From an uncultured delta proteobacterium (lineage in GTDB: Bacteria > Desulfobacterota > Binatia > Binatales > Binataceae): a stretch of DNA of 64,000 bases. This document shows, in pieces, positions 29,501 through 53,852 of this stretch; positions within the stretch are counted from its first letter, which is position 1; every line of letters begins with the position of its first letter. Below the pieces are notes generated by a model. The model was not told the origin of the DNA and did no database searches. It saw only the letters and a program-made list of their open reading frames with translations. The translations under genes and the position numbers were made by a program. The stretch lies in the NCBI GenBank assembly GCA_963808235.1, contig CAWEEQ010000004.1, positions 781,084-845,083 on the forward strand, written 5' to 3'.

Positions 29501-29755
29501 ACCCGACAGCGAACGCGACTCGATATGCTCAATGTTGCTGCCCAACGTAAAGAATCGCTCGTAGCGAAAGGTGATGTTGTCTTCCATGTCGAGCGGCGGC
29601 ATGCCCTGGTAAAAGGTAGCCACCACAACCGCTGGGATTTTAATGTCCGGAAAGATGTCCACCGGCATCTGCGTAAACGCCGTTGCACCCAGAATCACGA
29701 TGATCAGCGCTCCGACAATGATTAGGTACGGATTGCGCAGCGAGAAACTTGGCAC
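26594..29755 (-). CDS. efflux RND transporter permease (AcrB/CzcA superfamily)
   Basis: 1053 aa; 12-TM, two-large-loop organisation; GGFALAIGRLVDDSVVVLENI motif. Confidence 0.92.
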   Translation of the reverse strand: MPSFSLRNPYLIIVGALIIVILGATAFTQMPVDIFPDIKIPAVVVATFYQGMPPLDMEDNITFRYERFFTLGSNIEHIESRSLSGVSIIKVFFQPGTDVAAAAAQMGTLAEADLGVLPPGTLPPLVLQYDASSLPVVLVTLGGKGYNETQLEDQARYNVRNQLATVPGASVPIPFGGKFRQVMAYANPQALQARGLSLMDVVSALDTSNVILPAGDVKIGSKDYYIYSNSLIEKVPDINQVPVKIGRGQAPVLMDDVGKVTDSAQIQYNTVLINGQPSVYIPVLRQAGANTISVVDGVKQLIPNVFGLPAGMKLKTILDQSIYVRQAVDSLEHEAISGAVLASLMILIFLGSFRSTFAIFLSIPLSILAGAFGLYFNGSTLNIMTLGGFALAIGRLVDDSVVVLENINRHLAEGKEPHAAARDGAEEVALPVLASTVTTCIVFFPVMFLFGVSKYLFSALALAVVLSMAASYLVAMSVIPIYCARFLTREQALAAEHGESSGVFAIFNRAYERFASAYERLLENALDHKSVVIVGVTILFVVSLAMYPRLGTELFPETDAGMFTINFRAPAGTRIELTTDMARRIEDLVRKVIPPDELDMVVSNIGIAPSISAIYSPNSAQDSGFMQVALKSGHRHPTQYYVARLKQLLPIQLPNARTLFSSGSIIDSVLNLGKIAPIDVEFAGSSFTELHNAAKELQARINALSQVSQSFIAQELDYPTLNIKVDRVRAARLGVAQQEVIQNVITALDSNLYIKPSIWIDRANKDDYFLTVQYLGAQNGFDSLEVLQNIPIETVNKETGHAQSLLLRDVASIAPESHPSEADHYSIQRIVDLLVAPSTQDLGGTQEKIQREVSKMTLPPGVSVRYRGAVSSMQKSFSSFGFGLSLAVVLLYLVMVAQFRSFLDPFIIMFAVPMGLIGVIWTLWATGTTLNIESFMGIIVMVGIVVSNSILLVDFANERRRQGHELRRAAIDSARIRMRPILMTALATVAGLMPIALKLGEGSEASAPLARAAVGGLAVSTVLTLFLVPCIYEFFYRRIERAAAVQTPNEDRG

Positions 29756-29859
29756 GATGCAAACTCCCTGTCACCGGCGAAGTGATTACGCCGGTGGACT
29801 TTGACTTGACTATAACCGCCCGCGAATATCGGGCGCGTGTTAGCGAATCTGAAGTTTGC

Positions 29860-30225
29860 TTACAGCGGGTCTTGGCTTTCCGCGCGCGAGGGGAGCAATT
29901 TGAATCGTCTTATGAATGGCTGTACGGAAGGAGTCGCGAATCTGAACCTCGGTAAGGGCCTCACGGCCAGGTTGTCCGATACCGACGTCAAGTACTTCGG
30001 GAATGAAACATCAAGCGCTTGAGAGCCGGAATCGAGGTCGGGCTGACTTGACGAGGCCTTGGTGAATCTCTGTGCACCGCTAAGCCTATTCTGCTCGCAC
30101 GATCCGCAAGACACGCGAAAGTGTGGAACCTGCAATCGAGGGGTGAAGGCCACGATGCTCGTCACGATGAGAACCGCGGCAACCAGTTGCAGATGTAGAC
30201 GAGAAAACATTACTCCGACGCTCAT
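29860..30225 (-). CDS. hypothetical small exported protein upstream of the RND gene (weak call)
   Basis: The ORF is open to 30303. The internal Met at 30225 gives MSVGVMFSRLHLQLVAAVLIVTSIVAF (signal/anchor-like). No recognisable domain and a weak RBS. Confidence 0.25.
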   Translation of the reverse strand: MSVGVMFSRLHLQLVAAVLIVTSIVAFTPRLQVPHFRVSCGSCEQNRLSGAQRFTKASSSQPDLDSGSQALDVSFPKYLTSVSDNLAVRPLPRFRFATPSVQPFIRRFKLLPSRAESQDPL

Positions 30226-30419
30226 CTTATCGTTCCGCATTTTCGAATGCAAAGCGGAAGAATCTTTCCGCGTCTCGCGAAGATTTCCGCATTCGGCAGA
30301 CAACGTTTATTGCAGTCTGCCCTCTCGTTCAATCACGCCAGGAGCAGGTGCCAACTTTGCGGCGTATGATGTATACGTCGTGAAGCTTTTCAGAGACGCG
30401 AGTCCGAGCGCTGGGCCGG

Positions 30420-30875
30420 ATGCCCTTATTCAAGAAAATTCTTTGTCCTCTCGATTTCGATCAGAATTCGCTTCTGGCGCTCCAGGTTGCGACCGAACTG
30501 GCGCGGGAACGCAAAGCGACCCTCGATTTGCTGCACGTCGTCTCGATACCTTCCGGACCCGAGGTTGCGTTACCCTTCGCCAAAATGGAGAAGGCCGCAC
30601 GAACCAGGCTTGAGCGGCTGGCGGGCCAAAAAATAGGCAGCAAAGTCTCCCATCGCGTCGACGTATCGATGGGCGATCCGGCCGCCGAGATCATTCATAC
30701 CGCGAAAAAGTTGGATACCGATCTTATTGTGATGGCAACCCACGGACGGAAAGGACTCCGTCACCTTGTGCTGGGAAGCGTAGCCGAACGCGTGGTGCGG
30801 GAAGCCCCGTGCCCGGTGCTCGCGATCAAGTCGAAAGCTCCGGCCGCGAAGATCAAAAGACCTCGATCGAAATAA
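30420..30875 (+). CDS. universal stress protein (UspA family)
   Basis: 151 aa; ILCPLDF...DLLHVV...DLIVMATHGRKGLRHLVLGSVAERVVREAPCPVLAI; paralog of 23305-23757. Confidence 0.88.
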   Translation: MPLFKKILCPLDFDQNSLLALQVATELARERKATLDLLHVVSIPSGPEVALPFAKMEKAARTRLERLAGQKIGSKVSHRVDVSMGDPAAEIIHTAKKLDTDLIVMATHGRKGLRHLVLGSVAERVVREAPCPVLAIKSKAPAAKIKRPRSK

Positions 30876-31153
30876 TTCGCTGTATGACGTCACAGCTCAA
30901 ACGGTCGAAATCCTCGCGGTCGTCGCGAAATCAGAACTGTCGCGCTTTCCGCGGTTGGCAGAGAGGGCCAGGGGATCGAAATCTGGTTAAATTCAAGCCA
31001 TGAGCGGTGATGAAGGGAATATGGGGATCCGCCAAAAGGGTTTCACTGATACAAGAGCAATAATGAGGCTGCTTAAGGCTTGACTAATTTCTTGTCTTGC
31101 TCCATAGTGATGCTGCCACCGAAAGGGCGGGCAAAAACGGGGAAGGTAGGATA

Positions 31154-31399
31154 ATGCAACGATCACGAGAAAATGATGAGACTCAGCCGGAATTCTATAC
31201 TGTCGGCCAGCTCGCGGACTTGCTCCAACTGACGCCGATGACGATATACCGGATGGTCAGACGCGGCGAGCTCGCCTGTCATGCGATCGGGCGAATCAAA
31301 CGCTTTCGCCGCGGCGACGTAGAGACGTTCCTCGAGAATTCCAGGCAGCCGGCCTCGGAAGCCACCGCGGCTCCGGCTCCTCGCCGTCTCGATGGCTGA
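31154..31399 (+). CDS. excisionase-family (HTH_17, MerR-superfamily) DNA-binding protein, paralog 1
   Basis: 81 aa from the ATG at 31154 (AGGTAGG upstream); FYTVGQLADLLQLTPMTIYRMVRRGELACHAIGRIKRFRRGDVETFL. Confidence 0.8.
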   Translation: MQRSRENDETQPEFYTVGQLADLLQLTPMTIYRMVRRGELACHAIGRIKRFRRGDVETFLENSRQPASEATAAPAPRRLDG

Positions 31400-31663
31400 A
31401 GACTCTCGGCGAATAAGTTCCAGCAGCCCCTGAGATTACCGCTACTTCCTGAGCGCTCGCGGGTCAGTACGCGTTCGTGCCCGGCGGTAATTTTTCCCCC
31501 AGCTCTTTCCTCAAAACAGATTCTGCGAACGAGTGTAACCACCAGTACAAACTGGTTGCAGGGAAGAGTCGCGTCTATAGAAGATGGAGGGCGAGCATTG
31601 TAGAAGCTTGACAGGAGCGTTGCATTCCCAAAGGATAGCGCAGCAGTCGATTACGGGGGAAAA

Positions 31664-31882
31664 ATGCAACGCTCACGTCCGAAAGAAGACGCCCAGCCCG
31701 AGTTCTACACCGTTGGACAACTTGCCGATTTGCTGCAACTCACACCCATGACCATTTACCGCATGGTCAGGCGCGGCGAGTTGGCTTGTCACGCGATCGG
31801 TCGCATCAAGCGTTTCAGACGCGGCGATGTCGAGGCTTTTTTACAAAGCTCGAGGAAACCAGCGGCAAGCGCACCAAGCTAA
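31664..31882 (+). CDS. excisionase-family (HTH_17) DNA-binding protein, paralog 2
   Basis: 72 aa. The core is identical in protein sequence to paralog 1 except for one residue. Confidence 0.8.
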   Translation: MQRSRPKEDAQPEFYTVGQLADLLQLTPMTIYRMVRRGELACHAIGRIKRFRRGDVEAFLQSSRKPAASAPS

Positions 31883-32115
31883 GACTTGCTCGTCTTACGC
31901 TCGGCGCCTGAATCGCCGTTGGTTTGGTGTTCCGGTTCCCTGGCTACGCTCCCGCCCGCCGCGACCCATTGATCGACGACTGGCACTTCAAAGCGCAGAT
32001 CCCGTCCAACTCTAATAGCCCGCAACTGGCCTCTTCGCACCAGCCTGCGAACGGTAGCCGGATTGACATGCAGGTAGTCGGAAACCTCACGCAATGTGAG
32101 CATCCTTGCTGGCAT
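31879..32115 (-). CDS. excisionase-family (HTH_17) DNA-binding protein, third copy, convergent
   Basis: MLTLREVSDYLHVNPATVRRLVRRGQLRAIRVGRDLRFEVPVVDQWV. The start is uncertain (32115, 32103 or 32160). Its stop codon overlaps the stop of 31664-31882. Confidence 0.7.
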   Translation of the reverse strand: MPARMLTLREVSDYLHVNPATVRRLVRRGQLRAIRVGRDLRFEVPVVDQWVAAGGSVAREPEHQTNGDSGAERKTSKS

Positions 32116-32355
32116 ATGCTCGCCCCTGGCTGACTCCATTCGACCCGGATTCATCCGCAAGCTCGCAAAAGTCTCATCAGGTTTGTCCTCGCCGTTTCGG
32201 TGACCGGAGGTGGCCGGAGGTCTCTAAATCTATTTGACTGTCTAATGCGCATTATCATTCAAATTACTTGACGACGACTCATCTATTGCTTGATGACCAT
32301 CATCTGCTTTCTCAAACGTAGCAAGATTTCAAAGACTAATCAAGCCATGAAAATA

Positions 32356-32384
32356 TTGTCAAGTTAAGATAAAGCTGTTAGAAT
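32356..32384 (+). promoter_or_regulatory. candidate sigma70 promoter of the EPS locus
   Basis: TTGTCA (32356-61), 17-nt spacer, TAGAAT (32379-84), inside a 360-bp AT-rich tract about 140 nt upstream of the Wza-like ATG. Confidence 0.4.
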
Positions 32385-32526
32385 TCTAAAGCGTGGCATC
32401 TTTATTTACTTTATTTTATGTCTCATTGCTTTGTTTATTCTTTTATGGTACAGTCTTACATAGCGTGCATCCCTTACGATTCATGCGTCGAATCGCGTAC
32501 TGACCTGAGCAGTGAGAAAAAAAACC

Positions 32527-33252
32527 ATGAAACGAAAACTATTGGTCATAGCTCTTCTGTGTTGTGCGCAGCTTCTGTTCGGATGCTCCGCGAAGGACCC
32601 GGAGGCTACCGATATCAAGGGTGTGTCGATGGCGCCGGTGTCGCCTGCCTGCCAATTCACTTCGGTCGACGACCAGTTTCGATCATACCGGATTCAGCCG
32701 GGCGACCAGCTCGACATCAGTTTTTATATGAGCCCCGAGTTTGACCAGGACCTGACCGTACGACCCGACGGCGACATCTCGATGCCGGTGGTCGGCAATA
32801 TTCACGTGCAGGGACTAACCCCGGTCGGGCTCGAGAAGAATCTCAATCAGCTCTATTCGCAGGAGTTGAAAGATCCGAAGACCACGGTCCGCATCGACAA
32901 GAGTCCAAGCCAGGTCGTGTACGTCGAGGGCCAGGTTGGCAAACCCGGCGCGGTGCCGCTGCAGCCCGGGATGACCGCGATCCAGGCGATCGCCGCGTCG
33001 GGCGGAATGAACGATAACGCCGGACCGAGCCGGGTGATTCTCATAAGACGCGACGCGTGCGGGAACGCGCACGGGCAGCCTCTCAAGCTCGACAAAGTGC
33101 TGAACCAGAAAAATAACGAAGAAGATGTGGCGCTGCTGCCTTCGGACATCGTGGTCGTACCGCGCAGCGGGATTGCCCAATTCGATCTCGACGTGAAGCA
33201 GTACGTGCGCGACGCGATGCCGGTCGAAGTCTACGCCGCGCCGCCATTTTGA
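32527..33252 (+). CDS. polysaccharide export outer-membrane lipoprotein (Wza/OPX family)
   Basis: MKRKLLVIALLCCAQLLFGCS lipobox. Poly_export motif: YRIQPGDQLDISFY...VRPDGDISMPVVGNIHVQGLT. SLBB-like: VYVEGQVGKPGAVPL. Confidence 0.85.
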   Translation: MKRKLLVIALLCCAQLLFGCSAKDPEATDIKGVSMAPVSPACQFTSVDDQFRSYRIQPGDQLDISFYMSPEFDQDLTVRPDGDISMPVVGNIHVQGLTPVGLEKNLNQLYSQELKDPKTTVRIDKSPSQVVYVEGQVGKPGAVPLQPGMTAIQAIAASGGMNDNAGPSRVILIRRDACGNAHGQPLKLDKVLNQKNNEEDVALLPSDIVVVPRSGIAQFDLDVKQYVRDAMPVEVYAAPPF

Positions 33253-33262
33253 GCCGAGTGGG

Positions 33263-34786
33263 ATGAATCAGATGAACAACGAAGCTGTAATGCAGTGGAT
33301 AGAGAAGATATTCCGGCGCCGGGCGTTGGCGCTCCGGATAGGCCTGCTGGTCTTCGGCGTAATCGCGCTGGGCTCGATCATGTGGCCCCCGAGCTACGCG
33401 TCGTCGTCGAAAATCCTGGTTCAATCCAACCGCGCGCAACTGCTGGTCTCGCCCGGGCTGAAGGAAGACGCCGCCAATCAATCGACCCAAACGGTTCCGG
33501 TGGCGGAGCAGGACCTCAACTCGGAGGTCGAGCTGCTGACCAGTCCGTTCCTTATTAAGCAGGCGCTCGCGGGGATGAAGCTCAATCAACGCAAGGGCGG
33601 CGTGATCGCGGGAATGCGAAACATTGTCGACGCGGTCGTCAGCGTCCCGACAGACGTGTACACGGTGCTGCACGGAGGCCCCAGCGCGACTGCGAACCAG
33701 GACGAGATTCAGAAAATCGTGAATCATCTCAGCGCGGACGTGATCAAGCGCTCGAATGTTATCGAGGTTTCGATTGTCTCGCACGATCCCGCGTGGGCGA
33801 AAGCGTTTCTCTCGCAATTGATGACTTCATACCTGAACCTGCACGGGCAGTTGTCGCAGAATCCGCAGGCGCAGGCATTTTTCCAGCAGCAGCGCGCGCT
33901 GCTCGATCAGCGCCTCCAGGACTCAGAGAAGGAGTTGCGCGCGGCGCAACTGCAGACCGGAATCGCTCAATTCAGCGAGCAGCAGCAGGCGCTCATCAAC
34001 CAGGTGTCCGCCGCCGAGGCGAACTATCGCACCACCAGCGCCTCTCTGGATTCCAAGCTGCAGCAGATCAGGAGCCAGGAAGCCGAGTTGAAGCAGACTC
34101 CGCAGCGTCAGACCAAGGAATCGAAGTCGGTCCAGAACATGGCGCTCAGCCAGTTGAAGCCGCAGATGCTTCAACTCGAAACCGAGCGTGCCGAGTTGTT
34201 GAGCCGCTATCAGCCCACCAGCGAGAGAATCCGTGCGATCGACGCCAAGCTGAAAGCCGGCCAAATCATCCTGAGCCGCGAAGATAAGACCAACGTCCAG
34301 GAAACCACCACCGATGTGAATCCGACCTGGCAGGCGCTCGATGCCGATTTGGCCAAAGCGCGGGCCGAAGCCGCGTCGGATAAGGCGGCGCAGACCACTG
34401 AAGCGGCGCAAGTCGCAACGTTACAGAATCAGCTCAAACAGATGACCACGGATGGAGTCGAGATCGAACGCCTGCAGCGCAAAGTCGATAGCGACAAGGA
34501 AGCGTACATGTCGTACGTGCGCAAGGGCGAGGAGGCCCGCGCGGCCGAGGCTCTTAACCAAAGCCGGATCCTGAACGTGAGCGTGGTGCAGGATCCGACC
34601 ACTCCGATCGATCCGGTGTCGCCGCGAATCCGGTTGAATCTGATCGCCGGGCTCCTGTTTGCCCTGATGCTGGCGGTCGCCGCGGCGCACTGGACCGAGG
34701 AATACGATCCCAAGATTTGTTCGACCGCGTCGATATTCAAGGACACCGGGCTCAGCACGGTCGCGATCCTCGACGACAGGTTGTAG
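33263..34786 (+). CDS. polysaccharide chain-length determinant (PCP/GumC-like, no kinase domain)
   Basis: 507 aa; N-terminal TM followed by YASSSKILVQ (Wzz-type), a long Gln/Ala-rich coiled coil, and a C-terminal TM (LNLIAGLLFALMLAVAAA). Confidence 0.8.
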   Translation: MNQMNNEAVMQWIEKIFRRRALALRIGLLVFGVIALGSIMWPPSYASSSKILVQSNRAQLLVSPGLKEDAANQSTQTVPVAEQDLNSEVELLTSPFLIKQALAGMKLNQRKGGVIAGMRNIVDAVVSVPTDVYTVLHGGPSATANQDEIQKIVNHLSADVIKRSNVIEVSIVSHDPAWAKAFLSQLMTSYLNLHGQLSQNPQAQAFFQQQRALLDQRLQDSEKELRAAQLQTGIAQFSEQQQALINQVSAAEANYRTTSASLDSKLQQIRSQEAELKQTPQRQTKESKSVQNMALSQLKPQMLQLETERAELLSRYQPTSERIRAIDAKLKAGQIILSREDKTNVQETTTDVNPTWQALDADLAKARAEAASDKAAQTTEAAQVATLQNQLKQMTTDGVEIERLQRKVDSDKEAYMSYVRKGEEARAAEALNQSRILNVSVVQDPTTPIDPVSPRIRLNLIAGLLFALMLAVAAAHWTEEYDPKICSTASIFKDTGLSTVAILDDRL

Positions 34787-34791
34787 CCGAT

Positions 34792-36375
34792 ATGTATTAC
34801 GAACACTTCAGACTTAGCGGCGCTCCCTTCGAGTTCAATCCCTCGGCGTCGGTGCTCTTCATGAGCGCGGGGCATCGCGAAGGATTGGCGGCGCTCGAGT
34901 GGGGACTGTCCGAGCCGAGCGGATTCACGATGCTGGTCGGCGAGATCGGGACCGGCAAGACCACGCTCATCTACTCGCTGCTCGCGACGCGGCATCAGGG
35001 CGTCCGGACCGCGTGGGTGGCGAATCCGCGCTTAAGCTTCGAAGACATGATGCGCCAGATTTTGGGCCAGCTGGGCGCAGTTGCGCCGGAGACGTCGGGC
35101 AAGCTCGCGCTGCTGCAGGCGTTCGACGCGCAGCTCGCGAGCCATGGGCTCGAAGAGTGCGTGGCGGTGATTGTCGACGAGGCGCAGGACCTGAGCGACG
35201 ACGCGCTGGAAGATCTGCGCCTGTTGACCAACTTTCAATCGCTCGAGCGCAGACGCCTGCAAATAGTGCTGGTCGGTCAGCTCGATCTCGCCAGAAGGCT
35301 GGGGCGGCCGCAACTGCGCCAACTGAATCAGCGAATCGGTGCGCGCGCGCTGTTGCCGACTCTGCAGGACCGGGAGATTTACGACTACGTCGAATACCGG
35401 CTGCGCTCGCGCGGCGGAGATATCGAGAACCTGTTCACGCGGAGCGCGATGCGGGAGCTCGCGCGCGCGAGCGGCGGAATCCCGCGGCGGATCAACATGC
35501 TTTGCCACAACGCGATGCTGCAGGCATACGCGGACGGCGAGCAATTCGTCGCCGAAAAGCATGTGCGTGCCGCCGCCAGCGACTACGATAATTTGCTGGT
35601 CGGCAAAGATTCGGCGTCCGCGAAGATGGCCGCATCGGCGAGCGCGGCGATGCAATCCGCGAGCACAAAGATACGGTCGGCGAGCGCGTCGATGCATTCA
35701 TCGGCGGTCTCGATGGCGCCGGCGATGCGTTCGGGCGCGACCAAGGCGGTTCGCGCGTTGAGCGCGGCGGCAACATTCGGGGCGCTGAGCTTGCTCGGCG
35801 TAGCGGTAGTCGGATTTTGCGAGATGCAGCCGGTGCACAATGATCTTTCCGCGCTGGTCAGGAAATTCGAATCGAAAGCGGCGAGTTTCAGAAGGCCAAT
35901 CGTGGTGCAGCGGGCGCCGGCGCAGTTCGTGACCGGTTCGTCCCCGGCGACCGTTCCGGCGCCGAACACAATTGGTTCGGCTCCAGCGGCCGTTCATGAC
36001 AGCACCGCCCCGGGCGCCCACGAATTGAGTACGCGCGGACACCTCAGGGGTCTTTCGGCGACTGGCCGGCGGGTTCCAGTCAAGCCGCAACCTGAAGCGA
36101 GCGCCGTTCCCAATATTTTGCCGGTGACGTTGTCGCCGGTCGGAAATATTTCCGCATCTCCGGATTCTTCGACGAAACCAGATGACGGCGCCTTGCGCAC
36201 CGACTCGACCATTTTGGTCAGGGCGGGCGACTCGCTCAGCAAGATAGCGATGAGAATCTATGGTTCGTTCGGAGCCGATGAAGTTAAGCGATTGACCGCG
36301 GCGAATCCGCAAATCAAGGACGCGAACGTGATCTATCCCGGTCAGTCTATTCACGTGCAGCAAGCTACCAAATGA
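34792..36375 (+). CDS. ExeA/GspA-like AAA ATPase with TM segment and C-terminal LysM domain
   Basis: MYYEHFRLSGAPFEFNP...GFTMLVGEIGTGKTTL (Walker A), VIVDEAQ (Walker B), TM AATFGALSLLGVAVVGF, LysM ILVRAGDSLSKIAMRIYG...NPQIKDANVIYPGQSIHV. Confidence 0.8.
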   Translation: MYYEHFRLSGAPFEFNPSASVLFMSAGHREGLAALEWGLSEPSGFTMLVGEIGTGKTTLIYSLLATRHQGVRTAWVANPRLSFEDMMRQILGQLGAVAPETSGKLALLQAFDAQLASHGLEECVAVIVDEAQDLSDDALEDLRLLTNFQSLERRRLQIVLVGQLDLARRLGRPQLRQLNQRIGARALLPTLQDREIYDYVEYRLRSRGGDIENLFTRSAMRELARASGGIPRRINMLCHNAMLQAYADGEQFVAEKHVRAAASDYDNLLVGKDSASAKMAASASAAMQSASTKIRSASASMHSSAVSMAPAMRSGATKAVRALSAAATFGALSLLGVAVVGFCEMQPVHNDLSALVRKFESKAASFRRPIVVQRAPAQFVTGSSPATVPAPNTIGSAPAAVHDSTAPGAHELSTRGHLRGLSATGRRVPVKPQPEASAVPNILPVTLSPVGNISASPDSSTKPDDGALRTDSTILVRAGDSLSKIAMRIYGSFGADEVKRLTAANPQIKDANVIYPGQSIHVQQATK

Positions 36376-36393
36376 CGAACTTAGGTGTGACCC

Positions 36394-37254
36394 ATGAGTA
36401 GATACTTTCAGGCAATGGAACGCCGCAAGAACGGAATGGTTCCGTTAACTGATTCCAGGATAGGTGATGCGAGAATCGCTGATTCCAACTTCGCTGATTC
36501 GAAGGTCGTTGAGTCGAAGATCATCGATTCCAAGATCATCGAGACCAAGACCAAGCCGTTCTCACACTCACAGGCTGTAGCGCGAACTCAGCCGATGGCG
36601 CTTCCGTCTGTTTCGGAGCCGCAAGGGTTGCTCGATACGCTCGCATGCTGCCATTCGATGCGCAGCTTGAGCGAGCAGCTGGCGGCGGCGAGCGCGCACA
36701 ATGGCCCTGCGCGAATACTCATGACCGGATGCCGGCCGGGCGACGGCGTATCCACCGTGGCTGCGGCGATGGCGCTCGACATAAGTCAGCGCCTGGCGGC
36801 GCGGACAGTGCTGGTAGAAGGACAGCCGCGAGTCACGATGATGCATCCGTTCTTCGCGCGCTCTTGCGCGCCAACTCCCGCGACGATCACGAGCGCGTCG
36901 ATCGCCGTGCAAGGAACCGGATATCCGCGGCTCGAGACGGCGCGGCCGGAGCAGTTGGCGCTAGCGGACCAACCGGCACGGCTGGTGGAAGATCTGGACG
37001 AATTACTTATGCGCTATCGCCTGGCGGTTATAGATCTCGGCGTAGTGCGTTTGGACCCACGAATGTTAGCGCTGGCGCGGCCCACCGATCCGATCCTGAT
37101 TGTGGCCCGACATCTGCATACAGATCGAGCGGAAATGATCGCGACGGCAAACATCCTGCGCTCTACCGGACATCCCGTAGCTGGGGTGATTCTGAATGGA
37201 TACAAGTCGCCGTTGCCATCGCTGGTTCGCCGCCTTGTTGGAATGGAGGAATAA
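36394..37254 (+). CDS. BY-kinase/MinD-like P-loop protein with degenerate Walker motifs
   Basis: ARILMTGCRPGDGVSTVAAAMALDISQ aligns to the S..PGEGKST Walker A of CpsD/EpsG-type kinases, but the Lys is replaced by Val. The A' box DxD is replaced (VLVEGQPR). There is no C-terminal Tyr cluster. Confidence 0.6.
   Translation: MSRYFQAMERRKNGMVPLTDSRIGDARIADSNFADSKVVESKIIDSKIIETKTKPFSHSQAVARTQPMALPSVSEPQGLLDTLACCHSMRSLSEQLAAASAHNGPARILMTGCRPGDGVSTVAAAMALDISQRLAARTVLVEGQPRVTMMHPFFARSCAPTPATITSASIAVQGTGYPRLETARPEQLALADQPARLVEDLDELLMRYRLAVIDLGVVRLDPRMLALARPTDPILIVARHLHTDRAEMIATANILRSTGHPVAGVILNGYKSPLPSLVRRLVGMEE
36451..36555 (+). repeat. 7 x 15-bp in-frame tandem repeat (pentapeptide DSKII-type)
   Basis: gattccaggataggt / gatgcgagaatcgct / gattccaacttcgct / gattcgaaggtcgtt / gagtcgaagatcatc / gattccaagatcatc / gagaccaagaccaag encodes DSRIG DARIA DSNFA DSKVV ESKII DSKII ETKTK. 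Confidence 0.9.
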
Positions 37255-37257
37255 GCA

Positions 37258-38379
37258 ATGGAAGATCTTATCTCGCACAATGGTACTCTAGCCGGTTCAC
37301 ACAACGGCATTCACGCGCCATCAAGTGTGCCTACCTACTCAACTCGGCGCCAAATGCGCGGGATTGCGATTGTTGGGCTCGGCTACTGGGGGCCCAACTG
37401 GGTGAGAAATTTTTCCCAGATACAGGGAATCGACCATGTCGTGTGCTGTGACTTCAGCCGCCCGCGGCTCGATCACATCAAGGGACGTTACCCATCGGTA
37501 GTCATTACCGACCAGCTAGACCGGGTGCTCACCGATCCCGCGATCGACGCGGTCGTAGTTGCTACGCCGGTTAACACTCACTTTGAGATAGCAAGTCGAT
37601 GCCTGAAGGCAGGTAAGTCGACGCTGGTCGAGAAGCCACTGGCTACCTCATGCGACCAGGCAGAGCTTCTAATAAAGATGGCGCGCGAGCGCGATCTGAC
37701 GCTTATGGCGGGCCACACCTTCGAGTACAGCGCGCCGGTGGTGAAGATTCGCGAGCTGATCGACAGCGGCGAGCTCGGCGATATTTTCTACATCAGCTCG
37801 GTGCGCGCGAATCTCGGGCTCTTTCGCCGCGACGTCAACGTGGCCTGGGATCTGGCTACGCACGACATCTCGATCATCCTGATGCTGCTGGGCGAGATGC
37901 CGCTTGAGGTGACTTGCCAGGGCGAGAGCCACTATCACGATCACGTCGAAGACGTTGCGCTGCTCACGCTTCGCTTTGCCAACAACGTGATCGCTTTCGT
38001 GCACGTTAGCTGGCTCGATCCGAACAAGATTCGGCGCACAACTATAGTAGGTTCGCGCAAGATGCTGGTGTACGACGACACGGCGTTGCAGGAAAAAGTC
38101 CGCGTCTACGATAAGGGCGTCACCAAGCATCCTTACTACGACACTTATGGAGACTTTCAGCTTTCATATCGTTACGGCGACGTGAATATCCCGCGGATCG
38201 ACGACCCGGAGCCGCTCAAGGTGGAATGCGATCACTTTATTGAATGCATCAAGAGCGGGATTGCACCGAACAGCGACGGACTGAGCGGACTTAGAGTAGT
38301 GAAGGTGCTGGAAGCAGCCGACCGTTCGCTCAAGAGTCACGGAAGGCCGATAGCGCTTACTCCAACCAGGGTGAACTAG
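37258..38379 (+). CDS. Gfo/Idh/MocA-family sugar-nucleotide oxidoreductase (WbpB-like)
   Basis: IAIVGLGYWGPNWVRN Rossmann start, EKPLA motif, GGAGG RBS. Confidence 0.8.
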   Translation: MEDLISHNGTLAGSHNGIHAPSSVPTYSTRRQMRGIAIVGLGYWGPNWVRNFSQIQGIDHVVCCDFSRPRLDHIKGRYPSVVITDQLDRVLTDPAIDAVVVATPVNTHFEIASRCLKAGKSTLVEKPLATSCDQAELLIKMARERDLTLMAGHTFEYSAPVVKIRELIDSGELGDIFYISSVRANLGLFRRDVNVAWDLATHDISIILMLLGEMPLEVTCQGESHYHDHVEDVALLTLRFANNVIAFVHVSWLDPNKIRRTTIVGSRKMLVYDDTALQEKVRVYDKGVTKHPYYDTYGDFQLSYRYGDVNIPRIDDPEPLKVECDHFIECIKSGIAPNSDGLSGLRVVKVLEAADRSLKSHGRPIALTPTRVN

Positions 38380-38423
38380 CACACACCACTTAGATGTAGC
38401 ACTGAAAGAATGTGAGAACTGAG

Positions 38424-38924
38424 ATGTCACCGCACGAACTACCACCCAACGTATGCGCCTCGGCCGACGTGATCCTGGGCGAGGAGGTCCAATTAGCACC
38501 TTTCGTAAATCTATACGGATGCAGCGTCGGAGACGCGTCGCGAATCGGCGCCTTCGTGGAAGTTCAGCGCGACGCGCACATCGGCAAGCGCTGCAAGATA
38601 TCGAGTCACACTTTCATTTGTTCCGGCGTCACTATTGAAGATGAGGTTTTCATCGGTCACGGGGTGCTGTTCATCAACGATCGGCATCCACGCGCGACCA
38701 ACCCCGACGGCACCTCCAAGACCCCGGACGATTGGGTGATGGAGCGCACTTACGTGCGGCGCGGCGCCTCGATTGGGAGCGGTGCGATCATCATGTGCGG
38801 CGTCGAGATTGGCGCGAGATCGATGGTCGCAGCCGGTGCGCTAGTGACCAGTGACGTTCCCGCGCGAGCAACTGTCCTAGGTATACCGGCACGTCTATAT
38901 ACCGGCCAGCGCCGGTCCGCATAG
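38424..38924 (+). CDS. left-handed beta-helix N-acetyltransferase (WbpD-like)
   Basis: Hexapeptide repeats IGAFVEV...IGKRCKI...IGHGVLF...IGSGAIIMCGVEIG...; a GTG at 38412 is an alternative start. Confidence 0.78.
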   Translation: MSPHELPPNVCASADVILGEEVQLAPFVNLYGCSVGDASRIGAFVEVQRDAHIGKRCKISSHTFICSGVTIEDEVFIGHGVLFINDRHPRATNPDGTSKTPDDWVMERTYVRRGASIGSGAIIMCGVEIGARSMVAAGALVTSDVPARATVLGIPARLYTGQRRSA

Positions 38925-38941
38925 ATCAGGAGTCGAACGAG

Positions 38942-40078
38942 ATGCCAATCAAATTTTTGGACCTCGCGGCACAGAACCGCGAAATCATGCCACAAGTCGA
39001 GCGCGGCTTCGCGGAAATCCACGAGAAGACTTCGTACGTTGGAGGCCCACAGGTGGCGGCGTTCGAAGAGGAATTTGCGAACTTCCTGGGCGCCCGCCAG
39101 GTGATCAGCGTGGCGAGCGGGACCGACGCGCTAAGACTCGCGCTGCTCGCGATCGGAATCGGGCCGGGCGACGAAGTGATCACGACTCCGATGACGTTCA
39201 TCGCGACTGCCGAAGCGATCGTGCAGACCGGCGCGCGGCCCTCGTTTGTGGATATCGATCCGAACACCGGAAATATGAGTGTTCCGGAAATCTCGCGCTA
39301 CCTCGAGCGGGGACGCTTCACAGCGCCCAACGGCCCGCGCGCGATCGTCCCGGTTCATCTCTACGGAATGCCGGCGCCGATGATCGAAATGCGCGATCTC
39401 GCGCAGGCGTGCAACCTTAAACTGATCGAGGACGCATGCCAGGCGCATGGCGCGCGCATCACTCACGACGGCCAATCGCAATATGCCGGCACGATCGGCG
39501 CGGCCGGTTGCTTCAGTTTTTATCCCGGTAAGAATCTGGGCGCGTGGGGCGAAGGCGGGGCCGTGGCGACCAATGACGAGGAGCTGGCGGCGCAGATCCG
39601 TACGTTACGCGACCACGGACGCCTTTCGCACTACGCGCACAGTGCATATGGATACAATGCGCGGCTCGACACGATGCAGGCGGCGGTACTCCGTCCGAAG
39701 CTCGAGCGCCTGGCGGAGTGGAATGCACGACGCCGGCACTTCGCGGCGCTTTATCGTGAAACTCTGCCTCACGAGGTGGAGCTGCTGTCCGAGCCCGAGG
39801 GTATCGAGTCGTGCTACCACCTGTTCGTCATCCGCAGCGAGCGGCGAGACGCGATCAGAACCGCGCTGCTGCAAAACCAGATCGAGTGCGGGATCCATTA
39901 CCCGGTTCCGCTTCATCTACAGCCGGCATGCCGCGACCTCGGATATGCGCAAGGAGATTTTCCGCACGCCGAGACGATGGCTGACACCGTGCTGTCATTG
40001 CCGATGCATCCCTTTCTGACCGAGCGCGAAGTTAAGACGGTCAGCCAGGCAGTCAAGCGCGCATTAACCACAGGTTGA
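38942..40078 (+). CDS. DegT/DnrJ/EryC1/StrS-family sugar aminotransferase (WbpE-like)
   Basis: 378 aa; SGTDALRLAL, FIATAEAI, SFYPGKNLGAWGEGGAV (PLP-Lys region). Confidence 0.88.
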   Translation: MPIKFLDLAAQNREIMPQVERGFAEIHEKTSYVGGPQVAAFEEEFANFLGARQVISVASGTDALRLALLAIGIGPGDEVITTPMTFIATAEAIVQTGARPSFVDIDPNTGNMSVPEISRYLERGRFTAPNGPRAIVPVHLYGMPAPMIEMRDLAQACNLKLIEDACQAHGARITHDGQSQYAGTIGAAGCFSFYPGKNLGAWGEGGAVATNDEELAAQIRTLRDHGRLSHYAHSAYGYNARLDTMQAAVLRPKLERLAEWNARRRHFAALYRETLPHEVELLSEPEGIESCYHLFVIRSERRDAIRTALLQNQIECGIHYPVPLHLQPACRDLGYAQGDFPHAETMADTVLSLPMHPFLTEREVKTVSQAVKRALTTG

Positions 40079-40085: not shown

Positions 40086-41600
40086 GTGTTAGGCGGGGAA
40101 TTACAGCGTCAGAAGGCGCTACTTGCGGCCACCGACGCGCTAGCAGTCGTCGGCGCGTGTGCACTGTCGCAAGCCATCAGGAACCACGATTTATACCCCC
40201 TGGACCCAGGCAACTGGGGCGAGGCGCTGGCGGGCATGGCGATGCTGGGTGTGATCTGGATACTGGTCGCGCGCGCGGTCGGGCTGTATCGAAACGGGCG
40301 GCGGCACGAAGTCAAGTCGATCGTGAAGGCGAGTTGCGCGGCGTGGTTCACGATGGTGTCGATCAGCTTTTTCCTGCATCTGGCGCCATCGCGGCTGGTG
40401 GTAGGCATCGGACTGGCGCTGACGATTGGTTTTGTCGTAACGGCGCGGATGCTGGTCCGCCGCTGCATCAAGTTTTTTTATTCGCGCCCCGAGTTCGCGG
40501 TGCCGCTGGTCATCGTTGGGGTCAATTCGTTCGGTGTTTACCTGCGTGATCGAATCAAGGAAGAGCTCACGCAGTACGAATTCCTGGGCTTTGTAGATGA
40601 AAACCCGGTCCCGCTCGCATCCAACGGTGTGAACGGGCACAGCGGCACCAACGGACACGACGACGCGAATCGGCACAACGGGCATTCCAAAACGAACGGA
40701 CATTTTGGATCGACCGGGCTCGCCACTCCGGCGCCGGTAATCGGAAGCCTCGAACGCATCGCGAGTCTCGCAATCGTACATCCCAACCTTGAGGCGGTGA
40801 TAGTTCTTCCCGAGCGCGACCACAGCCAGGTCGAGCGTATCATTAAGCTTTGCGAGCGTTATCGAGTTCGCTGGCGGATGATGCCGCGAGTTGCGGAATC
40901 GATGGCTCTGACGGTGGAGATGGTCGGCGCGATTCCGCTGATTGGGCCTCCGGGATCGAACATCGAAGGGCTCAACTGCGTGGTAAAGCGCGGCTTCGAT
41001 GTCGTGGTGGCGAGCCTCCTGCTGCTGCTTGCGTCGCCGCTCTTGATGTTCGCGGCGATTGCGATCTGGCTCACCGACGGACATCCGTTGCTGTTTCGCC
41101 AGACCAGGGTCGGTATCCACGGCACGCCGTTCGAACTGCTGAAATTTCGCACGATGCGCACCGAGTGCTCCGACACGGTGCATCGCGAGTACGTCAAAGA
41201 ATGGATTCAGCGCAATGCGGCCGAGGGGTCGGAGCCCAACGGCGCCAAGGTTTATAAGATCGGCAGCGATCCGCGGATTACGCCGATCGGACGATGGCTG
41301 CGGCGCTTCAGCATCGACGAGCTGCCGCAACTGATCAACGTCCTTTACGGGAACATGAGTCTCATCGGACCGCGGCCCGCGATGCCGTACGAGCTCGAGC
41401 TGTACCAGGAATGGCATCGGCATCGGCTCGACGCGCCGCCGGGAATCACCGGGCTGTGGCAGGTCAGCGGACGCAATCGTCTGTCGTTCGACGAAATGGT
41501 GCAGCTCGACATCGAATATATCGAAGACTGGTCGCTCGCGGGCGACATGGGAATCCTGCTGCGGACGCTGCCCGCGATGCTGCAAGGGAATGGAATGTGA
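40086..41600 (+). CDS. polyprenyl-phosphate glycosyl-phosphotransferase (WbaP/EpsB-type priming sugar transferase)
   Basis: N-terminal TM helices and a central nucleotide-binding-like domain. C-terminal Bac_transf core: KRGFDVVVASLLLLLASPLL...LKFRTM...DPRITPIGRWLRRFSIDELPQLINVL.GNMSLIGPRP. Confidence 0.88.
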   Translation: MLGGELQRQKALLAATDALAVVGACALSQAIRNHDLYPLDPGNWGEALAGMAMLGVIWILVARAVGLYRNGRRHEVKSIVKASCAAWFTMVSISFFLHLAPSRLVVGIGLALTIGFVVTARMLVRRCIKFFYSRPEFAVPLVIVGVNSFGVYLRDRIKEELTQYEFLGFVDENPVPLASNGVNGHSGTNGHDDANRHNGHSKTNGHFGSTGLATPAPVIGSLERIASLAIVHPNLEAVIVLPERDHSQVERIIKLCERYRVRWRMMPRVAESMALTVEMVGAIPLIGPPGSNIEGLNCVVKRGFDVVVASLLLLLASPLLMFAAIAIWLTDGHPLLFRQTRVGIHGTPFELLKFRTMRTECSDTVHREYVKEWIQRNAAEGSEPNGAKVYKIGSDPRITPIGRWLRRFSIDELPQLINVLYGNMSLIGPRPAMPYELELYQEWHRHRLDAPPGITGLWQVSGRNRLSFDEMVQLDIEYIEDWSLAGDMGILLRTLPAMLQGNGM

Positions 41601-43114
41601 TGGCGGCGCCGGGTGACATCAGCTCCGTAGCGAACGTCGAGGGTTGGCATTCGCCGGCCTTCGCGCGGGGCGTGCGTGACAACGTTATTGGCGAGGTCGG
41701 TCTGCAGGCAGTGCGGATCGGCGGATTGGTGGTGCTCGCGCGCGCGCTGGCGCCTTCGGACTTCGGACTGTTCAGAGTCCTGATCACGATTAGCGCAATC
41801 ATAATGATGGTCAATGATTTGGCGATGCCCGACACGCTCGTGCAGCGCCAGGAGCTCAGCAGCGCGCACGAGAGCTCTGCGTGGTGGGCGACGATCGCGG
41901 TATCGGCGTTGAGCTGCGCGGTGATCTACCTGGTCGCACCGTTGATTGCGCAAGCGATGGCGATGCCGACGATTACGGGCGCGCTGCGCCTGCTATGCAT
42001 CCCGATTCTGCTCGAAGGCTCGGTGACCGTACCGATCGCGAGGCTCACGCGCAAATTGCAATTCCGCACCCTTGCGATCGCCGAGGTCGTTGGCGAGCTG
42101 GCGTTCCTGGGCGTTGCGATCGCGCTGCTCGTGATGGGTCATCCTAGACTGAGCCTGGTCGGTGGCCTGTGTGCGCGGATGGGCGCGCATGCACTGCTTC
42201 TCTGGTGCGCTGAGCCGTACATCCCGCGAGTAGGACCAAGCCGCAAGGCGCTGCTCGAGCTGCGAGGCTTCGCGAGTGGCGCGATGGGCGGCCAAATCTT
42301 TCACGCGATTTCCTGCAACATCGACTACCTGCTGGTGGGACGCACGCTCGGAAGTTCCGCGCTTGGGTTTTACGGGATGGCGTGGGACCTGCTTCGTTTC
42401 GTTCCCGACCGGCTCTACAAAATCGCTGGCCGCGTGACGGTTCCCGCGTTCGCCCGCATGCAACATCAGCCCGAGCAACTGCGGCGCGCCTACTTGAGCT
42501 TTCTCGATTACATGTGCCGGCTGATCGTGCCGCCGCTCGTATGTATTGCGATCGCGGCGCCCGAACTGTTGCGCCAGATTTACGGACCGCAGTGGATTGC
42601 GGCCGCGCTTCCGCTGCGCATCCTGAGCTTCGGAATAATTACTATCGGGCTACGTTCGGGAATGGGCGCGGTTTTCTATTCGCTGGGACGCCCGGTATTC
42701 GAAATGTATCTGTATGCTATCCGATTCGTGCTGATCGCAGTAGCGGTGTTGGTCTCGGCATCGAGTGGATTGCTGTGGGTCTGCGCCGCTGTCAGCGCGG
42801 TCGAGGGCGCGTGCACCGTTATCGGCCAGCTGGCCGCATGCCGCCTGCTGGACGTCGGCCTCGTAAAAGTATCGCGCGCGCTCATTTCCGGATTCACGAC
42901 TGCGGCAGGCTGCGCGGCTGCGACCGTAGGCGGCAGAATGCTGGCGAACAATCTCGGTATCGGCGGCCTGTTGGAACTGTCGATGATGGTTGCGCTTCCG
43001 GCGCTCGCGTTCCTTCTAATCGAAGCTCGCACCGTTCGCGAGATGCTCAGCAGCGCGCTCGGCTCCGTAAGCGTCGACAGTCCACTTCCCGAAACCGGCC
43101 AGGAGCGGGCCTAG
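41600..43114 (+). CDS. polysaccharide flippase (Wzx/MOP-family lipopolysaccharide biosynthesis protein)
   Basis: About 504 aa with about 12 TM helices. The ATG at 41600 overlaps the preceding TGA. The ORF track's extension to 41294 lies inside the previous gene. Confidence 0.75.
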   Translation: MAAPGDISSVANVEGWHSPAFARGVRDNVIGEVGLQAVRIGGLVVLARALAPSDFGLFRVLITISAIIMMVNDLAMPDTLVQRQELSSAHESSAWWATIAVSALSCAVIYLVAPLIAQAMAMPTITGALRLLCIPILLEGSVTVPIARLTRKLQFRTLAIAEVVGELAFLGVAIALLVMGHPRLSLVGGLCARMGAHALLLWCAEPYIPRVGPSRKALLELRGFASGAMGGQIFHAISCNIDYLLVGRTLGSSALGFYGMAWDLLRFVPDRLYKIAGRVTVPAFARMQHQPEQLRRAYLSFLDYMCRLIVPPLVCIAIAAPELLRQIYGPQWIAAALPLRILSFGIITIGLRSGMGAVFYSLGRPVFEMYLYAIRFVLIAVAVLVSASSGLLWVCAAVSAVEGACTVIGQLAACRLLDVGLVKVSRALISGFTTAAGCAAATVGGRMLANNLGIGGLLELSMMVALPALAFLLIEARTVREMLSSALGSVSVDSPLPETGQERA

Positions 43115-45120: not shown

Positions 45121-45139
45121 CGGCAGCCAAGAAGTGAAA

Positions 45140-46570: not shown

Positions 46571-46584
46571 CGGATGTGGGCGAC

Positions 46585-53434: not shown

Positions 53435-53852
53435 TTCTATGACATATAGTTAGCACCAATCCGCGCCACCGAGTCGTAAGGATCCTCGCGATCGATCACC
53501 CCAATAGCTGGATTCGCGAACATCAGCGCGTCCTCGCGGGTATCGCCGGCAGGGCGCTGAAGCCCTGAGCCATGGCGACGCGCTCCGTCGTACCATTAGC
53601 TACGCCGCGTTTCGATTGCTCGATAGAAAGCCCGATCGCCAATCCAGTCAATATCGTTGAGTGTCAACGCGGCGACACTTTCTAGCTTTTCTTAATTTTT
53701 AGGTACAGGATTAATTGAAATCCACCCTTCCCCTTGTGTACCTACTTCACCCAAGACATTTCGAGAATTCGACTGCGGATTGTGTCCTTAGCGCGTTGAC
53801 CTGTTGACCGGTGCCGGCGTGTGTAGGGCGAGAGCTGGGGAGTAGCTCTGGT

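Follow-up and report, generated by a model that had tools for sequence, protein, structure and literature searches.

How a Wzx/Wzy-dependent machine crosses the peptidoglycan layer and is kept in register with it is not addressed in current models, and a step that pins the machine to the wall has not been described for this machine type. This question is raised by one gene of the window (the whole 64-kb stretch of DNA that was analyzed), which encodes an ExeA-like ATPase joined to a LysM domain and is located among genes for polysaccharide export (Table 1). ExeA-like ATPases are common in EPS loci and their role appears to be unstudied. In the literature, no paper was found on an ExeA-like ATPase with LysM architecture in polysaccharide loci, and no full-text paper was found for the family TIGR03015 or its names. 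The analysis indicates that the protein probably pins the polysaccharide export machine to the cell wall.

Table 1. Positions of the AAA+/LysM gene, its protein regions and the neighboring genes (window coordinates; residues refer to the AAA+/LysM protein).
Feature	Position (nt)	Strand	Basis
Short Class-3-like OPX lipoprotein, 246 aa	32512..33252	+	Poly_export and one SLBB, lipobox LLFGC
PCP without kinase domain, 507 aa	33263..34786	+	GNVR domain
Gene for the predicted bitopic AAA+/LysM protein, 527 aa	34792..36375	+	ORF; stop codon included
Cytoplasmic AAA+ domain and lid, residues 1-270	34792..35601	+	Pfam AAA_22, AlphaFold2 pLDDT about 90, Foldseek
Walker A GEIGTGKTT, residues 50-58	34939-34965	+	
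Walker B DE(AQ), residues 129-130	35176-35181	+	
Sensor-2-like GIPRRIN, residues 229-235			
Cytoplasmic Ala/Ser-rich low-complexity linker, residues 271-324	35602..35763	+	Sequence
Single transmembrane helix, residues 325-343, AAATFGALSLLGVAVVGFC	35764..35820	+	Kyte-Doolittle mean 2.02
Periplasmic disordered Pro/Ser/Ala-rich spacer, residues 344-470 (~127 aa)	35821..36201	+	pLDDT, alignment
C-terminal LysM domain, residues 471-523	36202..36360	+	Pfam, fold prediction, profile matches
BY-kinase-fold protein, degenerate active site (predicted)	36394..37254	+	PDB sequence matches (CapB, VpsO, Wzc kinase domain)
GFO/IDH/MocA oxidoreductase	37258-38379	+	Profile match
LbH acetyltransferase	38412-38924	+	Synteny with Hexapep genes in L081, L083-L086
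DegT aminotransferase	38942-40078	+	Profile match
Priming phosphoglycosyltransferase (PGT)	40086-41600	+	Profile match
Wzx-type flippase	ORF 41294-43114, true start probably near 41600	+	Profile match
GT4 glycosyltransferase	43116-44291	+	Profile match
Wzy_C-family protein	ORF 44963-46570	+	Profile match

For the start codon, the evidence points to the ATG at 34792, since the alignment to TIGR03015 begins at residue 1 and all homologues start with MYY (31 of 31 in the homologue alignment). A TTG at 34717 was ruled out as start by the same alignment and would run into the PCP gene. An identical copy of the protein (P0001) is present in public data, and homologues carry the automatic names ‘ExeA’, ‘MshM’ or ‘general secretion pathway protein A’. 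An Rfam search of positions 29700-38000 gave no match.

The initial annotation had described the domain order AAA ATPase, Ala/Ser-rich linker, one transmembrane helix, Pro/Ser-rich spacer and LysM, with which profiles, hydrophobicity and the AlphaFold2 model all agree. The AAA assignment is confirmed by Pfam AAA_22, which matches residues 43-170 with 79.5 bits (cut-off 27). Walker A, Walker B and the arginine of the GIPR motif were found to be invariant in the alignments of all three ATPase clades. The best solved matches of the ATPase in Foldseek were Cdc6/ORC, TnsC and MuB (E ~1e-12), which are ATP-dependent oligomerizing switches. As modeled, the ATPase is an intact AAA+ domain of the initiator clade that would act as a nucleotide-dependent assembly switch and not as a motor. 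A motor or unfoldase is ruled out by the fold class, and the description ‘ATP-driven’ given earlier is too strong for a fold of the initiator/switch type.

The Ala/Ser-rich sequence quoted in the initial annotation is indeed present, at residues ~276-313 within the linker. The linker length ranges between 10 and 70 aa in the homologues, whereas the Ala/Ser-rich insert is restricted to close relatives and missing from more distant ones. A tandem repeat of 3 × 21 nt in the linker DNA (35634-35696) was dismissed as meaningful, since it is weak (64% matches) and distant homologues lack the insert. Residues 325-343 are the sole segment of the protein that reaches the threshold for hydrophobic segments (Kyte-Doolittle mean ≥ 1.6). 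Of 32 homologues, 30 have one hydrophobic region at the matching position that reaches this value, and two fall short with peaks of 1.29 and 1.56. Adding up the flanks of the segment in 32 sequences gives a net charge of about +90 N-terminally, compared to +25 C-terminally. From the one hydrophobic segment and this positive-inside bias, a bitopic N-in/C-out topology is predicted, which places the LysM domain outside the cytoplasm, as had been proposed.

The periplasmic spacer consists of P/S/T/A/G to 51% and of proline to 12%, and the pLDDT is below 50 at residues 361-469; next to the membrane, residues 349-365 are predicted to form a short helix. Its sequence is unconserved, yet its length is kept among the homologues (70-139 aa, median 125). 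LysM is the only folded domain of the periplasmic portion, so that neither a direct contact to the OPX nor a ‘gating’ of the export channel is indicated; nothing was found in support of the latter, which had been suggested as a function. Without another folded interaction domain, any link to the OPX or the PCP would have to pass via the transmembrane or the cytoplasmic parts.

For the LysM domain itself, the Pfam model (PF01476) matches residues 476-522 with 28.2 bits (E 1.9e-6, cut-off 20.9). Among solved structures, the profile built from 32 homologues matches LysM proteins, namely SafA (3e-10) and also Kbp and TsaP. AlphaFold2 predicts a beta-alpha-alpha-beta fold at residues 471-523 (E471-475/H482-490/H495-504/E519-523) with a pLDDT of about 85, and the residues G479, D480, I485, N505, P506, P516 and G517 are invariant in the homologue alignment. 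The LysM assignment is thus backed by HMM, fold and profile matches. Among 150 representatives (the best 150 clusters at 50% identity), LysM was detected in 102; the superfamily as a whole comprises ~13,000 clusters.

In a neighbor-joining tree of the ATPases, calculated without bootstrap, the protein groups with a large LysM-bearing clade, apart from true GspA/ExeA and from the soluble ATPases of ~318 aa in EPS loci near TIGR03015. The TIGR03015 model (NCBIfam) matches residues 1-263 with 208.4 bits, which is below the curated cut-off of 324.5; a GspA-type relative (L010) scores 270.8 and a soluble one (L011) 299.4. The label ‘pepcterm’ is not supported by this score, and no exosortase family match was obtained among the larger ORFs scanned in the 64-kb window.

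The surrounding OPX, PCP, sugar-pathway, PGT and Wzx genes place the gene within an EPS export module, in line with the initial annotation. In the OPX, Poly_export covers residues 57-128 (D1) and SLBB residues 134-216 (D2). The profile of EpsY is covered to its end, whereas Wza is matched only at 86-252 of 380. Instead of the ‘Wza-like channel’ named earlier, the neighbor is a Class-3 OPX with D1 and D2 only, which is devoid of the C-terminal helix spanning the outer membrane (PMC12819527). The PCP was correctly recognized: besides GNVR, it matches pepcterm_ChnLen with 100.6 bits (under the cut-off) and has two terminal hydrophobic segments. Its gene stops 5 nt ahead of the ATPase start. Further downstream, GFO-LbH-DegT (37258..40078) is likely a pathway for a 3-amino/3-acetamido sugar. 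A polysaccharide deacetylase gene was found at 46459-47385 of the window.

The order OPX-PCP (~504 aa)-ATPase/LysM-~257-aa protein-GFO-LbH-DegT-PGT-Wzx is conserved in eight loci (the window, L001, L002, L081, L083, L084, L085 and L086) with identities of 39-80%, and the junctions between the genes are tight or overlapping. No beta-barrel porin gene was recognized in the cassette or beside the OPX.

In the window, the 286-aa protein following the ATPase retains a likeness to CapB, VpsO and Wzc at the fold level, and its active site is altered. Its Walker A reads GDGVST in place of G-K-S-T, so that the lysine is absent, its Walker A’ reads VEGQPR in place of VDGDMR, and the C-terminal tyrosine cluster is absent. 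The change of K to V is visible in the PDB alignment and was called from this alignment and from locus-derived kinases, not from the guide sequence of S. aureus CapB. GDG[VA]ST is invariant in five orthologues. The protein is predicted to be catalytically degenerate, with a dead Walker A. In the LysM clade, all kinase-like neighbors (7/7) are without the Walker A lysine, the A’ DxD and the tyrosine cluster, and one soluble ATPase within this clade (L031) likewise has a degenerate kinase beside it. Neighbors of soluble or short-TM ATPases kept Walker A GK and DxDLR in 12/12 aligned sequences, most of which retain the tyrosine-rich tail; one (L067) is a short ORF without it.

Taking these observations together, we lean towards a scaffold role for the protein in the inner-membrane platform of a Wzx/Wzy-type export machine, in which it would be tethered to peptidoglycan and switched by nucleotides. 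LysM would bind the sacculus at its glycan strands, and a tether bridging the inner membrane to the wall would be formed by the spacer. Upon ATP binding, the cytoplasmic domains would oligomerize, as in ExeA and other AAA+ proteins of the clade, and organize or stabilize a PCP/pseudokinase ring beneath the lipoprotein OPX. The trans-envelope conduit would thereby be assembled at one site of the wall and kept in register. As it is just in the LysM clade that the BY-kinase partner is degenerate, the AAA+ domain may also provide the nucleotide-dependent cycle of assembly and disassembly that is supplied elsewhere by autophosphorylation. A further-reaching and distinctly speculative idea is that the ExeA-like AAA+ replaced tyrosine autophosphorylation as the switch of the PCP ring and coupled this switch to the sacculus, leaving the dead BY-kinase as a mere adaptor. 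If true, this would mean a wall-anchored, kinase-independent control of Wzx/Wzy-dependent polysaccharide export in a widespread clade.

The protein could instead be mainly a regulator, in which the AAA+ took over the BY-kinase role as switch for PCP oligomerization or chain length and wall binding is accessory. We regard this as unlikely, although the fold is of the switch type and the degenerate neighbor occurs only in the LysM clade, while the PCP-ATPase-kinase order is the same in soluble-ATPase loci with an intact kinase (e.g., L011). This coexistence of soluble EPS-locus ATPases with intact kinases argues for a role of the ATPase that is independent of kinase loss. In addition, the covariation of kinase and ATPase may be phylogenetic inertia, and could reflect the shared ancestry of one cassette and not functional coupling. 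A regulatory role also overlaps with the scaffold and does not exclude it.

The nature of the ligand bears on a second alternative. LysM recognizes GlcNAc-type glycans in general, including chitin-like and other GlcNAc polymers, so it is only domain substitution that points to peptidoglycan as the ligand. On the same ATPase scaffold, PG_binding_1 was found in 36 and a GspA C39-like domain in 19 of 80 genome loci. Within the LysM clade, deeper members carry LysM together with SPOR (L041, L073) or SH3_3 (L037). Judged from these assignments, one wall binder can stand in for another as the outer module. Peptidoglycan is the only ligand common to LysM, SPOR, SH3_3 and PG_binding_1 modules, and their swapping on one scaffold favors peptidoglycan over the exported polymer.

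It is accordingly doubtful that LysM binds the exported polymer and not the wall, with the protein sensing or handling an N-acetyl-amino-sugar EPS in the periplasm and relaying its presence to the cytoplasmic ATPase. The broad GlcNAc-type specificity of LysM would permit this, GFO-LbH-DegT is present in every LysM-type locus examined and fits a 3-acetamido sugar in the product, and the window holds the deacetylase gene; however, a cassette inherited as a unit would bring the sugar genes along in any case. SPOR and SH3_3 are swapped in or added in relatives of the clade, and PG_binding_1 in the sister clade; these are wall-binding modules for which, to our knowledge, no affinity to EPS is known.

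SPOR binds glycans that amidases have denuded, and its presence in L041 and L073 would fit a protein that is not a static anchor but recruits or positions a wall-remodeling activity (e.g., a lytic transglycosylase) by which the sacculus is opened to the conduit. This is improbable, as the cassette, the window and the seven related loci yielded no gene for a hydrolase, amidase or transglycosylase, and the C39-like domain of GspA is absent from the protein. That the protein is simply an orthologue of GspA/ExeA (or MshM) and serves the secretin of a T2SS or pilus encoded elsewhere, with an incidental EPS location, is suggested by the shared ATPase superfamily and the automatic names of its homologues, but is very improbable given its place between PCP and kinase-like gene in eight loci down to 39% identity, the absence of the GspB-like neighbor that true GspA-type loci have, the lack of C39-like and PG_binding_1 domains, its separate clade in the ATPase tree, and the lack of secretin and T2SS/T4P family matches among the window ORFs scanned.

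Compared to the ExeA/GspA proteins of the T2SS in Aeromonas and Vibrio, the scaffold proposed here shares an AAA_22-type ATPase (~40% identity over residues 1-264 to L010) and a layout of cytoplasmic ATPase, one transmembrane segment and periplasmic wall-binding end. ExeA also serves a trans-envelope export machine; it binds peptidoglycan and multimerizes on it, and both the formation of the complex and the assembly of the secretin depend on its ATPase (PMC4098917). The analogy to ExeA made in the initial annotation is apt to this extent and stops at the partner: no ExeB/GspB-like gene is present, and the BY-kinase-fold protein follows downstream. The GspB partner adjoins in the ExeA/GspA systems, and the ORF downstream of L010 matches T2SS_GspB weakly (32.5 bits compared to a cut-off of 100). 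The wall-binding end differs as well, being C39-like plus PG_binding_1 in ExeA/GspA and LysM on a disordered spacer here. Both of these domains were detected in GspA-type relatives, whereas C39-like and PG_binding_1 (PF01471) gave no match in the window protein even at E ≤ 1. Finally, a secretin is the partner there, compared to OPX, PCP and kinase-like genes and a separate ATPase clade here.

The soluble XrtA/PEP-CTERM ATPases of TIGR03015 (~318 aa; L011, Acidobacteriaceae) share the ATPase family and the position in the cassette. The order in the L011 locus is OPX ... PCP-ATPase-BY kinase-PGT, of which PCP-ATPase-kinase matches the window. They differ in having no transmembrane or periplasmic part, an intact kinase neighbor and a place in another clade.

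The WzaB-WzcB-WzpB translocon of Myxococcus xanthus is similar in its short lipoprotein OPX (EpsY-like, D1 and D2 only) and in being Wzx/Wzy-dependent (PMC9603273, PMC12819527). It includes a porin, whereas none was recognized beside the OPX in the cassette studied here. The words ‘peptidoglycan’, ‘LysM’ and ‘ATPase’ never occur in the text of the paper on the Class-3 OPX mechanism in Myxococcus; an AAA+ or wall-binding component is therefore not described there.

In type IVa pili, LysM likewise ties an envelope-spanning machine to peptidoglycan: the PilQ secretin is fixed to the wall by TsaP, a LysM-bearing protein (PMC9239104). It differs from the window protein in being a periplasmic binder of the secretin ring without ATPase and membrane anchor. 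The LysM clade provides a testable handle on such anchoring, as it is large and has a wall-binding module, conserved partners and a naturally dead kinase. If wall anchor and ATP switch are needed for export, the principle of sacculus anchoring found for ExeA and TsaP would reach polysaccharide secretion, and an alternative to control by BY-kinases would be shown.

The start codon of the gene encoding the ATPase/LysM protein was assigned to the ATG at position 34792, 5 nt past the stop codon of the upstream gene. Since the TIGR03015 alignment covers the product from residue 1 and the motif MYY(E/Q)HFGL opens all 31 of 31 aligned homologues, the protein has a length of 527 aa; an alternative TTG at 34717 was ruled out by the same alignment and the N-termini of the homologues. 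Family scans, hydropathy analysis and AlphaFold2 confirmed every element of the order described in the initial annotation (ATPase, linker, TM segment, spacer, LysM), and the AAA and LysM assignments both exceeded the Pfam cut-offs. A profile derived from the protein's alignment matched the solved LysM proteins SafA (3e-10), Kbp and TsaP, the last a component of the PilQ secretin complex. There is no solved structure of an ExeA-type ATPase.

Features of the window and domains of the ATPase/LysM protein
Feature	Position	Strand	Remarks
Signaling NTPase, 1145 aa	7406-10843	-	double zinc ribbon, adenylate/guanylate cyclase, AAA_16, TPR
Small gene	31097-31399	+	helix-turn-helix-like by eye; just upstream of EPS operon
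Direct repeat, 201 nt	31153-31353 and 31663-31863		73% identity
Small gene	31664-31882	+	helix-turn-helix-like by eye; paralogue of 31097-31399
Small gene	31879-32160	-	helix-turn-helix-like by eye; paralogue of 31097-31399
OPX lipoprotein, 246 aa	32512-33252	+	Poly_export, one SLBB; lipobox LLFGC
PCP without kinase domain	33263-34786	+	GNVR, pepcterm_ChnLen-like
ATPase/LysM protein	34792-36375	+	ORF list; ATG start at 34792, frame ends at 36375
TIGR03015 (NCBIfam, pepcterm_ATPase)	residues 1-263		208.4 bits; cut-off 324.5
AAA_22 (Pfam)	residues 43-170		79.5 bits; cut-off 27
LysM (Pfam)	residues 476-522		28.2 bits, E 1.9e-6; cut-off 20.9
Tandem repeat, 21 nt x3	35634-35696		weak, 64% matches
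Kinase-like protein, 286 aa	36394-37254	+	BY-kinase fold
GFO/IDH/MocA oxidoreductase	37258-38379	+
Left-handed beta-helix (LbH) acetyltransferase	38412-38924	+
DegT aminotransferase	38942-40078	+
Priming phosphoglycosyltransferase (PGT)	40086-41600	+
Wzx flippase	up to 43114	+
GT4 glycosyltransferase	43116-44291	+
Wzy_C protein	up to 46570	+
Polysaccharide deacetylase	46459-47385
Three large ORFs (487, 695, 769 aa)	53811-60323	+	downstream of EPS locus

In the hydropathy scan, residues 325-343 (mean 2.02) formed the single segment reaching at least 1.6. The equivalent region reached this value in 30 of 32 homologues and peaked at 1.29 and 1.56 in the remaining two. The net charge summed over 32 sequences was about +90 in the 15 residues before the segment and about +25 in the 15 residues after it. 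Since the N-terminus is a 320-residue ATP-binding domain without a signal peptide, an N-in/C-out topology is predicted, and LysM would therefore be located in the periplasm rather than in the cytoplasm. In the AlphaFold2 model, built on the 32-sequence alignment, the AAA+ core and its lid (pLDDT near 90 as far as about residue 270) and the beta-alpha-alpha-beta fold of LysM (residues 471-523, pLDDT about 85) were modeled confidently, the TM region as a low-confidence helix and residues 361-469 as disorder. The spacer between TM segment and LysM has no conserved sequence among homologues; its length is kept within 70-139 residues (median 125) with about 52% P/S/T/A/G, as would be expected of a tether with a set reach. 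The Ala/Ser-rich insert of the cytoplasmic linker, partly underlain by the tandem repeat, was found in close relatives only.

A word-indexed search returned 651 relatives (E≤1e-5), and nearly all of the best 120 carry AAA_22 and LysM, several under the JGI name "ExeA/LysM repeat protein". When 1.84 billion 50%-identity representatives were searched exhaustively with a profile, 13,218 relatives were returned (E≤1e-30). A clade-specific HMM detected LysM in 102 of the best 150 of these, terminal in 83 and followed by more than 60 further residues in 19. Among the best 100, Pfam LysM (E≤1e-4) was found in 45; a further 9 have the LysM-like Phage_tail_X, and about 6 have TPR. TPR repeats end some of the representatives in place of other modules.

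From 80 species-representative genomes, three architecture groups were drawn: (i) long forms with PG_binding_1, often together with the GspA C39-like domain, mostly in Gammaproteobacteria (36/80; C39-like in 19/80); (ii) soluble forms of about 318 aa, mostly in Acidobacteriota (27/80); and (iii) LysM forms in MAGs labeled Deltaproteobacteria, Binatia and Smithella (6/80). In an NJ tree of the ATPase domain, which is unbootstrapped and thus only indicative, these groups fall into three clades, with every LysM protein, the window's included, in one of them. None of the three groups shows variation in Walker A, Walker B or the GIPR arginine, and the ATPase domain is therefore probably active. In a Foldseek comparison with the PDB, it grouped with Cdc6/ORC, TnsC and MuB (E of about 1e-12), which places it in the initiator clade of AAA+ proteins. 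Members of this clade use ATP to oligomerize on a partner and not to translocate substrates.

The surroundings constitute a Wzx/Wzy-dependent EPS locus, with a GNVR polysaccharide co-polymerase (PCP) directly upstream of the ATPase gene. The larger window ORFs scanned gave no match to an exosortase, secretin or T2SS/T4P family. The GFO-LbH-DegT trio (37258-40078, +) was kept in every LysM-type locus examined and would fit a 3-acetamido sugar as constant polymer component. The direct repeat is common to two of the three small paralogues, which may be regulators of the locus; an HTH_17 gene occupies the matching position in L081, the locus of a relative. The 487-aa and 769-aa ORFs have weak pectate-lyase-like matches, and the 695-aa ORF carries a bacterial Ig domain (Big_7) and long linkers rich in Thr and Pro; all three are possible EPS-modifying or depolymerizing enzymes. 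An RND efflux operon upstream of the locus and the 1145-aa large signaling NTPase are unrelated.

The loci of relatives were searched with the window's neighbor proteins. No OPX, PCP or PGT was found within 8 kb in group i loci, where the downstream ORF (about 190-300 aa) has in L010 a weak T2SS_GspB match (32.5 bits, cut-off 100). Such loci resemble GspA-GspB pairs. Group ii ATPases are located in EPS loci, as in L011 with the order OPX, unknown 510-aa protein, PCP (pepcterm_ChnLen), ATPase (TIGR03015, 299 bits), Tyr kinase (eps_fam above cut-off) and PGT. Group iii ATPases lie in EPS loci in the window's own gene order: OPX, PCP (about 504 aa), ATPase/LysM, a protein of about 257 aa, GFO, LbH, DegT, PGT and Wzx were found in L001, L002, L081, L083, L084, L085 and L086, with ATPases 39-80% identical to the window protein, and L082 holds a decayed copy amid transposases. 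The window protein thus shares its bitopic, wall-binding layout with group i and its kind of genomic surroundings with group ii.

The protein encoded immediately downstream has a BY-kinase fold (PDB sequence matches to CapB, 5e-5, VpsO and the Wzc kinase domain). Its Walker A motif is GDG(V/A)ST (GDGVST in the window copy) with Val/Ala replacing the Lys of G-K-S/T, the A' DxD and DxPP motifs are both lost, and the C-terminal tyrosine cluster is absent. The active site is degenerate in 5/5 close orthologues and in every LysM-clade locus checked, and still more so in L003 and L031. In contrast, kinases beside soluble or short-TM ATPases kept EGK(S/T) and DxDLR in 12/12 aligned sequences and D(S/T)PP in 11/12 (exception: L067, a short ORF), and those of acidobacterial loci have C-terminal tails with 3-7 tyrosines. 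In this sample, kinase chemistry is therefore lost where the ATPase has gained its TM/wall-binding extension. The window copy additionally contains an Asp/Ser/Lys/Ile-rich repeat of about 30 aa (residues ~27-56, ADSKVVESKIIDSKIIETK...), which is missing from the 79%-identical L001 orthologue.

The outer-membrane polysaccharide export protein (OPX) matched only positions 86-252 of the 380 of the E. coli Wza profile and the Myxococcus EpsY profile (211 positions) to its end. By sequence, the Wza-like channel initially proposed is thus a Class-3 OPX. Proteins of this class lack the outer-membrane helix, oligomerize only when lipid-anchored and have a separate porin and PCP as partners (PMC9603273, PMC12819527). 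No gene for the expected beta-barrel porin was recognized anywhere in the window cassette. Between OPX and PCP, L084 and L086 carry an unannotated gene of about 304 aa and L011 that of the 510-aa protein, both without window counterpart.

Deeper members of the LysM clade differ in this respect: LysM is followed by SPOR in L041 (8001-9929; 31.8 bits) and L073 (8001-9617; 32.9 bits), SH3_3 stands at the periplasmic end in L037 (8001-9458), and L031 has no such outer module. The periplasmic end of the family has been swapped repeatedly among modules with peptidoglycan as common ligand, and this exchange of SPOR, SH3_3 and PG_binding_1 is the principal argument for binding of LysM to the sacculus and not to the EPS. 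Binding to the probable product of the locus, an N-acetyl-amino-sugar polymer, would agree with the co-inheritance of the GFO-LbH-DegT genes, but is improbable given the ligand shared by the relatives' outer modules.

In the most likely mechanism, LysM would tether the protein to glycan strands, and ATP-dependent oligomerization of the cytoplasmic domains would organize a PCP/pseudokinase ring under the lipoprotein OPX, so that the conduit is assembled and held at one wall site. A precedent is ExeA, which multimerizes on peptidoglycan and whose ATPase is needed for complex formation (PMC4098917); TsaP, the PilQ AMIN domains and GspA/GspB hold secretins at one place of the wall (PMC9239104). 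More speculatively, an AAA+ switch may have replaced the phosphorylation cycle. The gating of the OPX suggested in the initial annotation is unsupported, as LysM is the only folded domain of the periplasmic part.

The AAA_22+LysM architecture is already present, auto-annotated, in public databases, and as a domain shuffle the protein is unsurprising. A literature search found no published description of this architecture or of the EPS-locus ATPase, and the words "peptidoglycan", "LysM" and "ATPase" do not occur in the current Class-3 OPX model paper. The protein points to a wall-anchoring step in polysaccharide export and possibly to its kinase-independent control, both of which are directly testable. 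It is related to the TIGR03015 proteins, but its score falls short of their curated cut-off and its architecture is different. By analogy, it may work like ExeA/GspA, yet it is not a member: the bitopic wall-binding design noted initially is shared with ExeA, whereas the C39-like and PG_binding_1 domains and an adjacent GspB partner were tested for and are absent.
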